Virus record (IMG/VR): IMGVR_UViG_2579779002_000006
Reading direction: 5' to 3' (one strand)
DNA length: 23,775 bases
DNA from: a virus
Lineage: Duplodnaviria; Heunggongvirae; Uroviricota; Caudoviricetes
The position numbers and the translations under genes were made by a program. The notes under the pieces are model-generated. The model was given only the letters and a program-made list of their open reading frames with translations. It was not told the DNA's origin and made no database searches. Positions 20,678 through 23,747 of the stretch are shown here, piece by piece (the first letter of the stretch is position 1; every line of letters starts with the position of its first letter).

Positions 20678-21004
20678 TCATAACACCGTCGGACAACGCA
20701 AATCGTAAATCAGCACGGAAACAGAAAACGGCAGCTCCCCCTGAAGCAGTTCTTCCCGCTCCGCAAGATCCGGATTCCGGTACAGCATCCCGGTCAGTCG
20801 CATGGCAGCCCCCTTCATCCGGGTTAATGCCTCGCCCGGGATCAGTTCACCGTCCTCACGGATCACTTTATCCCGGCTGCCCTGAATGTAGGCCAGCAGC
20901 ACGGCGGTAGCCTGACGAACCTTGTCCATCAGCATGTCATCATCCGCGTCATGGTCGACACGCAGATGTGCCTTGATCTCTTCCAGTGTCAGTAATGCCG
21001 TCAT
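20678..21004 (-). CDS. gp6-like head-tail connector protein
   Basis: 108 aa; N-terminus MTALLTLEEIKAHLRVDHDADDDMLMDKV... is the characteristic start of HK97 gp6-family connectors. Confidence 0.8.
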   Translation of the reverse strand: MTALLTLEEIKAHLRVDHDADDDMLMDKVRQATAVLLAYIQGSRDKVIREDGELIPGEALTRMKGAAMRLTGMLYRNPDLAEREELLQGELPFSVSVLIYDLRCPTVL

Positions 21005-22386
21005 TTTCCGCCTCCTGCATCCCGCCCACGTTTTGCAGCCAGGGTCCAGGCTGATGAATGAGCTTCTCCGGGTTTATCTTCGGTCATACTGTTGCAGTGC
21101 CACAGCGAGCCCCCCCACGTCACCGTATCGCCGGGGTGGTAGGTTTCACCGGCTCTGAACACACCGCGGTAGAGCATCACCGGCAGGGAAAATGTTTTTT
21201 CCGTACGCTGGCCACTGCTCTGCCGGACCACCACAGAGAACAACCGCTCACCCGTCATGCTGACGTCAATATCCGCCACCCCGTCAACCAGGCATTCCCA
21301 TCCCCGCATCCCGTGCGTTTTTTCATACGCCCGCCAGAGTCCGCCCTGGTGTGTGGCATACGTGCCCCGGGGAAAGGATTTTTGATCGTCAATGGCGGGG
21401 AGTATTTCCAGAGCCGTGGCATCACGCCCGTCCTGCGGAGCCGGCAGGGCACTCACCGCATCCAGAACCGCCTTCTGCAGAACATCCGGATCGTAGTCAC
21501 GACCATCACGCGGAACATGAATATGGCTTACCGCCTCCTTCACCATCTGTTCAAGCATCGGACGCACATCATCCGGGGTGAGACTTTTACCGTCTGCCGG
21601 CTGCGGAATATTTGCGACCGCATCATTCACCGCCTTCTGCAGAACATCGGGATCATAGTCACGACCGTCGCGCGGAACAGGGATATGGCTTACAGCCTCC
21701 TTCACCATCTGTTCAAGCATCGGACGCACATCATCCGGGGTGAGACTTTTACCGTCCGCCGGCTGCGGAATATTTGCGACCGCATCATTCACCGCCTTCT
21801 GCAGTACTTCCGGATCGTAGTCACGACCATCACGCGGAACAGGGATATGGCTTACAGCCTCCTTCACCATCTGTTCAAGCATCGGACGCACATCATCCGG
21901 GGTGAGACTTTTACCGTCCGCCGGCTGCGGAATATTTGCGACCGCATCATTCACCGCCTTCTGCAGTACTTCCGGATCGTAGTCACGACCATCACGCGGA
22001 ACAGGGATATGGCTTACAGCCTCCTTCACCATCTGTTCAAGCATCGGACGCACATCATCCGGGGTGAGACTTTTACCGTCCGCCGGCTGCGGAATATTTG
22101 CGACCGCATCATTCACCGCCTGCTGCAGTACATCCGGATCATAATCACGACCATCACGCGGTACCGGAATGGCCCCCACAGCGTCATCCACCATCGCCTG
22201 CAGAACCGGACGCACCTCATCCACCGTCACATGCTTCTGTAATACCGCCGACAGGGAAGTCAGTTTCTCTTCAAACGCTTGTGCCTGCGAGGCCATCTTC
22301 CCCTCAAATGTGCGCTGTAAATCCGCCAGCACCGTGGCGAATTCTTCACCCAGCGCACGGATAATGGACAGTTCACGTTCATTCAT
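21001..22386 (-). CDS. Structural-operon protein of unknown function (461 aa): N-terminal helical segment, five tandem 54-aa repeats, ~130-aa C-terminal domain
   Basis: ATGA overlaps with the portal gene upstream and the gp6-like gene downstream; repeats IPVPRDGRDYDP(D/E)VLQKAVNDAVANIPQPADGKSLTPDDVRPMLEQMVKEAVSH occur four times nearly identically plus one diverged copy. Confidence 0.8.
   Translation of the reverse strand: MNERELSIIRALGEEFATVLADLQRTFEGKMASQAQAFEEKLTSLSAVLQKHVTVDEVRPVLQAMVDDAVGAIPVPRDGRDYDPDVLQQAVNDAVANIPQPADGKSLTPDDVRPMLEQMVKEAVSHIPVPRDGRDYDPEVLQKAVNDAVANIPQPADGKSLTPDDVRPMLEQMVKEAVSHIPVPRDGRDYDPEVLQKAVNDAVANIPQPADGKSLTPDDVRPMLEQMVKEAVSHIPVPRDGRDYDPDVLQKAVNDAVANIPQPADGKSLTPDDVRPMLEQMVKEAVSHIHVPRDGRDYDPDVLQKAVLDAVSALPAPQDGRDATALEILPAIDDQKSFPRGTYATHQGGLWRAYEKTHGMRGWECLVDGVADIDVSMTGERLFSVVVRQSSGQRTEKTFSLPVMLYRGVFRAGETYHPGDTVTWGGSLWHCNSMTEDKPGEAHSSAWTLAAKRGRDAGGGK
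21455..22150. repeat. In-frame tandem repeat, 162-bp unit, about 4.3 copies, near-identical
   Basis: The string CACCATCTGTTCAAGCATCGGACGCACATCATCCGGGGTGAGACTTTTACCGTC recurs at 21541, 21703, 21865 and 22027 (period 162). Confidence 0.9.
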
Positions 22387-23747
22387 TTTTTCAGAATCCC
22401 CCTGAACATCGCCTTCACCGCACCATGCTCTGTTTCAGTGATTGCCTTATTACCGTCAGATGCGCCGTCAGGCGGTTGCGCTAAGGCCGTTTTCCCGGTC
22501 GACGCGAACGGATCTTCACGGGCATCACGACGGGACAGCGCCTCCAGACTGTAGTTCTGCTGCTGAAGATACAGTGCATCACCTCCCGCAAGGGGCGGCA
22601 GGTTCTCACGTTTACGGGCCTCATTGGGCGTGAGAAGCGTATTTTTCACCGACTCACCCAGCGTTTTCATGCGCCGTTCGCTGTCCATTCTCAGCAGCGT
22701 GGTGACGTCAAACTCCGTACTCTCGTTTTCCCCCGTTTCCAGCGCCTCATCCAGTAACAGTTCAATGGACTCAATCAGCGTCTGCAGGCACTGGGAATAA
22801 TACTGCTGCTCCAGCGCCTCCACGTTGTCACTGGAAGGTGGCTGGCCAACGCCAATCTTGTAGGCCGGGACACGGAACACCGAACAGACAATTTCAGCGG
22901 TCATCTTCAGTTGTTCCACCGTCTGCGCATCCACCGGTGAAAACGTCGTGGGGTTGTATTTTGCCCCGTTGCTCAGAATGGCCGTTTTCCCCGCATTTTC
23001 GCCTGTATACCCGCTGTCCCAGTTGCTCTTCAGTTTTTTCGCATTTTCTTCCGTAATACTGCCGGGGATCTCAATCACCCCGGACGGCCTGCCGCCATTT
23101 CTGAAAAAAGACGTCGAATTTTCCTGAATATGATGCCCCTGCGTGGCCGCCAGCCCGGCGGCATACACCGGCGGCAGCCCCACAAGCGGATGAAAAAAAC
23201 AGTTAAACCGGTCGTGGATCACTTCCCGGGCAGGCACCGTCACCGCCTCCGTGATCCCGCAGTTCCGGTCCGGCGTGATGCGATAGAACACCTCGCCGTC
23301 ATCCGCCACCAGAGGTTCAACCCGGCTCCAGTCCAGAATACGCAGTTCTTTGATCTGCCCCCGGGAGTTACGGATTTTCAGCACCACCGTATTGCCGTGA
23401 CGCAGTTTGGCGTTCAGCCACAGTTCAAAAAACTGGATACGATTCTGCTGTGCATTGGGACGACGACAGAGACGGGCAATATCCCCCTGCCGTTTTTCAC
23501 AGCGGATCCCCTGTGTATCCGTCTGCATCAGGCGCAGCCGCATTTTGGCGATATCCTGGGATATCAGCGAAATGCAAGAAAACACCGCATGAAAGGAGAG
23601 GACACTTTCCGGATCGGCTTTCACACCCTGCTGCCAGGCGCCAGCAAAGGGCTCAGCCACCGCCTGAAACAGGCTGGTCCAGCCCACCTCTTTTACATCA
23701 CGTCCTGATTTCTGGTTTTTTCGGGTTCGCCGCAAAAGGTTCCACAT
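22383..23747 (-). CDS. Phage portal protein (HK97-family-like)
   Basis: 454 aa immediately upstream of the structural genes; recalled resemblance to HK97-type portals. The upstream gene, presumably terminase, appears to end near 23763 but is outside what I can support. Confidence 0.7.
   Translation of the reverse strand: MWNLLRRTRKNQKSGRDVKEVGWTSLFQAVAEPFAGAWQQGVKADPESVLSFHAVFSCISLISQDIAKMRLRLMQTDTQGIRCEKRQGDIARLCRRPNAQQNRIQFFELWLNAKLRHGNTVVLKIRNSRGQIKELRILDWSRVEPLVADDGEVFYRITPDRNCGITEAVTVPAREVIHDRFNCFFHPLVGLPPVYAAGLAATQGHHIQENSTSFFRNGGRPSGVIEIPGSITEENAKKLKSNWDSGYTGENAGKTAILSNGAKYNPTTFSPVDAQTVEQLKMTAEIVCSVFRVPAYKIGVGQPPSSDNVEALEQQYYSQCLQTLIESIELLLDEALETGENESTEFDVTTLLRMDSERRMKTLGESVKNTLLTPNEARKRENLPPLAGGDALYLQQQNYSLEALSRRDAREDPFASTGKTALAQPPDGASDGNKAITETEHGAVKAMFRGILKK

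Follow-up and report, generated by a model that had tools for sequence, protein, structure and literature searches.

A lambdoid prophage fragment with a BP-4795-type head module: protease/capsid gene expected beyond the portal and a conserved fibre-like gene between portal and adaptor

Gene content of the head module

We analysed a 23,775-nucleotide (nt) stretch of DNA from a tailed virus (Caudoviricetes; IMG/VR record IMGVR_UViG_2579779002_000006), called the window below, with attention to its head module: an HK97-family portal gene, a gp6-like head-tail adaptor gene and, between the two, a single gene for a repeat protein of 461 amino acids (aa) (Table 1). The window proteins were searched against the profile libraries Pfam, PHROGs and NCBIfam, and tandem repeats were located with Tandem Repeats Finder (TRF). 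The window contains the right-hand portion of a BP-4795/phage 2851-type lambdoid prophage, and its portal, which has the same length as open reading frame (ORF) 58 of BP-4795, matches the NCBIfam model TIGR01537 (cut-off, 112 bits). ATGA overlaps of 4 nt join the portal gene to the repeat protein gene and the latter to the adaptor gene; the slot between portal and adaptor holds one ORF and has no spare room. Downstream of the adaptor, Pfam recognised a head closure protein (PF05521), HK97 gp10-like and gp17-like proteins and a tail tube protein with an immunoglobulin domain. No protease or capsid gene was found anywhere within the window, and none of the three libraries matched the 461-aa ORF to a capsid or protease family.

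Table 1. Coordinates of the features of the window discussed in the text
Feature	Position	Strand	Description
Portal	22383..23747	-	454 aa; HK97 family; complete; PF04860, E=2.9e-80; TIGR01537 portal_HK97, 1e-105
Repeat protein (BP-4795 ORF59 homologue)	21001..22386	-	461 aa
gp6-like head-tail adaptor	20678..21004	-	108 aa; PF05135, 1.5e-07
Tail part of 73-aa ORF (BP-4795 ORF57-like, phrog_829)	23693..23773	-	Final 26 codons and stop; cut by the window end
Tandem array in the repeat protein gene	21467..22161	-	Unit of 162 bp (54 aa); 4.3 copies; 96% matches (TRF)
Conserved C-terminal domain of the repeat protein	21004..21435	-	Residues 318-461; CBM5/12-like motifs
G5 run (AGG GGG ATT)	22398..22402	-	12 nt upstream of the portal stop
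ATGA stop/start overlap, portal/repeat protein	22383..22386	-	Preceded by an A6 run at 22386..22391
Left-end ORF	861..2144	-	427 aa
Left-end ORF	3479..4069	+	196 aa

Location of the protease and capsid gene

The region was 95-99% identical to 93 phage records and to 1246 of 5426 complete E. coli genomes, in lambdoid prophages and Shiga toxin (Stx) phages. A common gene order was read in phage 2851, phi330, E. coli CP062871 (99.0% identical to the window), E. coli CP135649 and BP-4795, namely HNH, terS, terL, a 1938-bp gene, a 222-bp ORF, portal, repeat protein and adaptor. The 1938-bp gene encodes a 645-aa fusion with a Peptidase_S78 domain (PF04586, residues 48-152) and a Phage_capsid domain (PF05065, residues 386-635), and the product also matches TIGR01554 major_cap_HK97 at 3e-22 and phrog_617 "major head protein" at 5e-261. 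It is a polyprotein made up of an S78 prohead protease, a scaffold-like linker and an HK97-fold major capsid protein. The capsid-before-portal order was also found in Salmonella phage FSL SP-016, in all of the approximately 75 IMG/VR loci with enough flanking sequence, including relatives only 50-77% identical, and in prophages of 80 further species, drawn from Enterobacterales, Pseudomonas, Burkholderiales, Sphingomonadales, Rhizobiales and Rhodobacterales.

E. coli CP135649 (locus L004) was 99.4% identical over window positions 4180-23775 (~19.6 kb); its prophage, like those of the other closest relatives, is integrated at ompW. Only 28 nt separate the portal start codon from the window end, and the stop codon of the capsid gene in CP135649 lies 184 nt past the point that matches this end. 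The last 81 bases of the window belong to the 73-aa ORF (phrog_829 at 2.1e-39), which sits between the capsid gene and the portal gene and overlaps the portal start by 55 nt; the part inside the window translates as KKRDAEHGECGTFCGEPEKTRNQDVM followed by a stop, identical to the small ORF of CP135649. The 73-aa ORF also occurs in locus L003 at 11932-12153, and similar small ORFs occupy its place in distant relatives (115 aa in L086 and 97 aa in L085). Right up to the window end, the sequence is collinear with intact relatives and nearly identical to them, and it bears no deletion scar. By this collinearity, the fused protease/capsid gene should lie just upstream of the portal, with its stop about 184 nt beyond the window, in sequence that the window does not reach. 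Their apparent absence is an effect of the nearby window edge, combined with a head-gene order unlike that of textbook HK97 modules.

The first-pass annotation, which was made from the DNA sequence, had described a lone gene with abutting boundaries between the portal and gp6-like genes and had recognised no protease or capsid gene; the ORF list and the profile searches bear out both observations. It had started from the order portal, protease, capsid, connector, a premise that does not hold for the present module type. Of the three explanations it offered, only the first, that the capsid genes lie elsewhere, stands: in every relative examined both an S78 protease and an HK97-fold capsid are present, as one fused gene between terL and portal, just to the right of the point that matches the window end. 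The second, that the prophage has lost these genes, is not supported because the window is collinear with intact relatives to its last base. The third, an unrecognised head protein in the slot, fails on the predicted structure described below.

The closest described instance of the module is BP-4795 (AJ556162), whose ORF55-ORF61 are identical in layout and ORF sizes to those of the window. There, terL is followed by ORF56 (1938 bp, 'major head protein/prohead protease'), ORF57 (222 bp), ORF58 (portal, 1365 bp), ORF59 (hypothetical, 1386 bp) and ORF60; ORF59 has never been given a function. BP-4795 shares ~95% nucleotide identity with window positions 15917-23775, differs in integration site and carries stx1. 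The capsid-upstream order is therefore already known, having been annotated in Stx phages since BP-4795, and in that light the apparent lack of capsid genes here is ordinary. The canonical HK97 head module runs terminase, portal gp3, protease gp4, capsid gp5 and gp6 adaptor. The BP-4795-type module has in common with it the HK97 portal, S78 protease, HK97-fold capsid, gp6-like adaptor, head closure protein and gp10-like protein. In contrast to the canonical module, it fuses protease and capsid, places the fusion upstream of the portal and has an extra conserved fibre-like gene between portal and adaptor. The window belongs with the HK97 type by its portal family; the order portal, protease, capsid, gp6 was departed from in all loci examined.

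The repeat protein and its relatives

Each 54-aa unit of the tandem array consists of two 27-aa half repeats, made up of an IPxPxDG motif and a helix. In near-identical E. coli alleles the ORF is 245, 299, 353, 407, 461 or 569 aa long, in 54-aa steps that reflect repeat copy number, and in more distant relatives it is 521 aa long. This variation in repeat number occurs beside capsid proteins that are 96-100% identical. A distant portal-fused homologue of 1237 aa (P0142) has about 20 copies of a 27-aa unit consisting of LPxPEPLPDI and a helix.

The 461-aa protein was modelled with AlphaFold2 using a 60-sequence alignment; a single-sequence run was uninformative, with a predicted local distance difference test score (pLDDT) of 44. 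The alignment-based model has an N-terminal helix (residues 3-52, pLDDT ~90), a middle part predicted with low confidence as a string of helix-loop units matching the 27-aa half repeats, and a beta-rich C-terminal domain (residues 330-450, pLDDT ~97). Among solved structures, Foldseek matched the model to the CBM5/12 chitin-binding structures 2d49, 2rts, 1e15 and 7b5h_AE with probability 1.0, the root mean square deviation being 2.0-2.9 Å over ~48 residues for 2d49, 2rts and 7b5h_AE and 6.2 Å over 56 residues for 1e15. The small beta fold of the C-terminal domain, as predicted, therefore superposes on solved chitin-binding domains. Tail-fibre chains of Agrobacterium phages 7-7-1 and Milano were matched as well, and the predicted viral structures matched were collagen-repeat, CBM5/12 and ChiC_BD proteins. 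No HK97 fold was found among the Foldseek matches. The window protein has no G-X-Y collagen repeats, and the Phage_Mu_F family was absent both from its Pfam matches and from the families of 60 relatives.

The C-terminal 144 aa had 5495 relatives among 50%-identity cluster representatives. Almost all of the top 150 are free-standing proteins of 200-500 aa that share their starting Met and carry the domain at the C-terminus. Of 60 family members searched with Pfam, 49 matched CBM_5_12 at E<=0.01, with 2.3e-07 as the best value, and 19 had collagen triple-helix repeats (PF01391), which replace the helix-loop repeats in the stalk position. When a distant, Brucella-type portal was used as the seed, the protein was found downstream of the portal in all nine loci with enough flanking sequence, indicating that it belongs to the module as a conserved component and did not enter it as an occasional insert. 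The adaptor gene always lay directly downstream of the repeat protein homologue in the loci examined. In some distant relatives, further genes share the portal-adaptor slot (L085:4215-5648 and L087:2423-2935, with adjacent ORFs); they encode separate collagen-repeat proteins and proteins of 415-476 aa without a Pfam match. The slot in these distant relatives has the look of a small cassette in which the fibrous proteins vary. Scans of viral contigs with the distant family members P0164 and P0127 as seeds gave mostly collagen-repeat matches to giant viruses, the true loci being L085-L087, L165 and L171. A tblastn search of isolated phages with the C-terminal domain of three family members found little beyond E. 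coli Stx phages and Salmonella FSL SP-016, and no experimentally characterised homologue among the few remaining matches or these.

The junction between the portal and repeat protein genes

The junction occurs in two forms that differ by one G. With five (ATGTTCA-GGGGG-ATT), as in the window, the portal ends in FRGILKK and a stop that the next ATG overlaps, giving two genes. With six (GGGGGG), as an alignment with phage 2851 showed, the frame reads through and the portal and repeat protein are fused. Phage 2851 (Pankowvirus, NC_049943) has the same module at ~96% nucleotide identity to window positions 21617-23775, carries G6 instead of G5 and so has one 859-aa coding sequence, with one repeat unit fewer than the window.

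The two forms bear on what the repeat protein gene is. It could have been split off, as the C-terminal half, from a long (859-915 aa) portal, in which case the window would hold a frameshifted portal pseudogene. This is how the arrangement is commonly annotated: PGAP labels the G5 form 'phage portal protein, frameshifted', and several GenBank records of Stx phages give it as a pseudogene. The in-frame junction FRGDTEK/FRGDTAK-MTERELS is present in 118 of the 120 best protein homologues, on which a Pfam family, PF28083, is precomputed, and phrog_2271 is an 859-position 'portal' profile that spans both portal and repeat protein. However, all of the more distant relatives, which come from other genera and have portals 51-68% identical, have two genes and keep the ATGA overlap (loci L048-L084). 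Their portal C-terminus, AM[IL]RG[LF]L[IT]K followed by the stop, is homologous to AMFRGILKK of the window, and the G run is absent in most of them. The fused form was rare: of 80 other species 1 had it, as did 2 of the 150 representatives of the family, and BP-4795 itself is split. On this outgroup comparison, the two-gene G5 state is ancestral and intact, and the G6 state is a derived fusion.

Exact-word searches of the 5426 complete E. coli genomes, in which clonal sampling of O157 and other Shiga toxin-producing E. coli inflates the counts, gave a different balance for each junction type. The window-type junction had G5 in 112 places (94 genomes) versus G6 in 3 places (2 genomes), which argues against a broken long portal. 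For the 2851-type junction, G6 was the commoner form (1338 places, 752 genomes, against 708 places and 367 genomes for G5), which favours one. Taking both sides together, we regard a portal pseudogene as very improbable. Each tract length was seen with the GAG as well as the GCG junction variant, so that flanking haplotypes are shared, which points to recurrent slippage or recombination at the G run; both tract lengths are common on shared haplotypes, the pattern looked for in a homopolymer contingency (phase-variable) locus. BP-4795 (split) and 2851 (fused) were presumably both isolated as infectious phages, and if so, both states are viable.

Automated annotation thus treats an ancestral two-gene state as damage. 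In the O157 Sakai genome, the head-gene organisation of prophages Sp6, Sp9, Sp10 and Sp12 was described as "slightly different", and the portal of Sp6, Sp9 and Sp12 was scored as defective, yet the DNA of Sp6 and Sp9 was packaged (Asadulghani et al., PMC2669165). The published portal-defective scoring of O157 prophages may rest partly on reading G5 as a frameshift. In phage phi330 (L002, PV189401), the portal gene is split by a 2-nt CT insertion and not by G5. The gp10-like and tail tube genes of that record are split as well, and the phage still forms plaques; its genome was assembled by hand from Sanger reads, the splits are probably sequencing errors, and we did not rely on the record.

A programmed -1 frameshift that yields both a short portal and a fusion, through slippage of tRNA-Gly at A GGG GGA or of tRNA-Lys at G AAA AAA UGA, is somewhat less probable still. 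A -1 shift at either run would give exactly the fused product of the G6 genomes, a Shine-Dalgarno-like AGGGGG lies 6 nt upstream of the A6 run, and both genotypes are common. However, neither the G run nor the A run is conserved in distant relatives, where the junctions read AGAGGATT..ATCAAATGAA. RNA folding of the junction region revealed no convincing frameshift stimulator: the sole predicted downstream hairpin begins ~26 nt after the A run and has an unremarkable fold z-score of -1.9, and the conserved layout is explained by a plain ATGA overlap.

Integrity of the prophage

The tape-measure gene (14849..18009) is interrupted at ~15917..15933 relative to the 1080-aa protein of relatives: ~81 nt have been deleted between 17-nt direct repeats, leaving residues 1-694 and 719-1080 in different frames. 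The prophage therefore probably has a defective tail, provided that the break does not stem from the assembly. In the tail tip gene J (8668..12142), the frame changes near 8903..8907, ~78 codons before the end, relative to the 1157-aa protein of the closest relative. Both lesions would suit a prophage that is a defective remnant and from which the protease and capsid genes have been deleted, and several O157 prophages with the present module have been scored as head-defective (PMC2669165). Against such a loss stand the unbroken collinearity of the portal, the 73-aa ORF tail and all else up to the last base of the window, and the fact that the expected position of the capsid gene falls outside the window in every relative; we consider the deletion very unlikely. 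That the 461-aa protein serves as the head protein, an unrecognised capsid or scaffold, as its helical N-terminus and its position in the capsid slot of canonical HK97 modules might suggest, can be set aside almost entirely, since its model consists of helix-loop repeats and a CBM5/12-like beta domain that matches chitin-binding modules and phage fibre proteins, its homologues vary from 245 to 569 aa by whole repeats beside nearly invariant capsid proteins, and a bona fide capsid gene lies upstream of the portal in all relatives.

Window positions 1..4179 had no match in the prophage of the closest relatives. This unmatched left end includes a low-GC stretch (2001-4000, 38-39% GC) and the two left-end ORFs of Table 1, which may be cargo or flanking DNA.

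Proposed role of the repeat protein

We are confident that the locus as a whole is best explained as a known permutation of the HK97 layout, with the capsid gene beyond the window edge and a conserved, fibre-like gene in the slot between portal and adaptor. Whether the slot protein is a portal-vertex-associated fibrous protein is, in our judgement, about evenly balanced. Such a protein would be anchored by its long N-terminal helix; a stalk of variable length would follow, built of helix-loop repeats here and of collagen triple helix in relatives, and the conserved CBM5/12-like domain, of a glycan-binding type, would form the tip of the stalk. The slot protein is made separately from the portal, with the ATGA overlap suggesting translational coupling to it.

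The minor head proteins SPP1 gp7 and Mu gpF are encoded directly after the portal gene, bind the portal and lie inside the capsid. The repeat protein is like them in gene position, and its occasional fusion to the portal is tolerated. Unlike them, it has a putative fibre architecture of coiled coil, stalk and CBM5/12-like tip, and no Pfam sequence match to them was found. Phi29 head fibres, T4 Hoc and the lactococcal neck passage structure are fibrous decoration or neck proteins with glycan-binding tips. By analogy, the repeat protein may resemble these in having an anchor, a stalk that varies by whole repeats and a distal binding-type domain, a likeness of architecture and not of homology. 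For a receptor-binding tip, however, the C-terminal domain shows unusual conservation.

A location outside the capsid, as a neck or head fibre, would suit the fibre-like architecture and the freely varying length; the tolerated fusion to the portal C-terminus favours one inside, at the portal crown. The portal C-terminus faces the capsid interior in solved portals, and T4 gp20-GFP (green fluorescent protein) fusions reportedly place the C-terminal end of that portal on the same side.

Several points weigh against the explanation that we prefer. For the source prophage, the capsid gene to the right of position 23775 is predicted from collinearity with relatives, and the tape-measure and J lesions show that some prophage decay has taken place. 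The CBM_5_12 (PF02839) score of the window protein was 20.6 bits, below the curated cut-off of 26.2. An in-frame fusion to the portal C-terminus that is tolerated fits poorly with an external fibre. Literature searches turned up neither virion proteomics nor a structure of the repeat protein; the mass spectrometry maps of the phi330 paper cover short-tailed phages only.

A further possibility, which we put forward tentatively and think unlikely on present evidence, is that the slot proteins form a widespread, uncharacterised class of portal-vertex proteins with a glycan-binding tip on a variable-length stalk and that the G5/G6 tract in E. coli toggles the protein between a free form and one tethered covalently to the portal C-terminus. 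If this were true, virion composition would be under the control of a heritable G5/G6 switch, and 'defective portal' would be the wrong call for many prophages of enterohaemorrhagic E. coli. The slot protein family comprises thousands of 50%-identity clusters, from Enterobacterales to Rhizobiales, and is a reasonable target for proteomics and cryo-electron microscopy.

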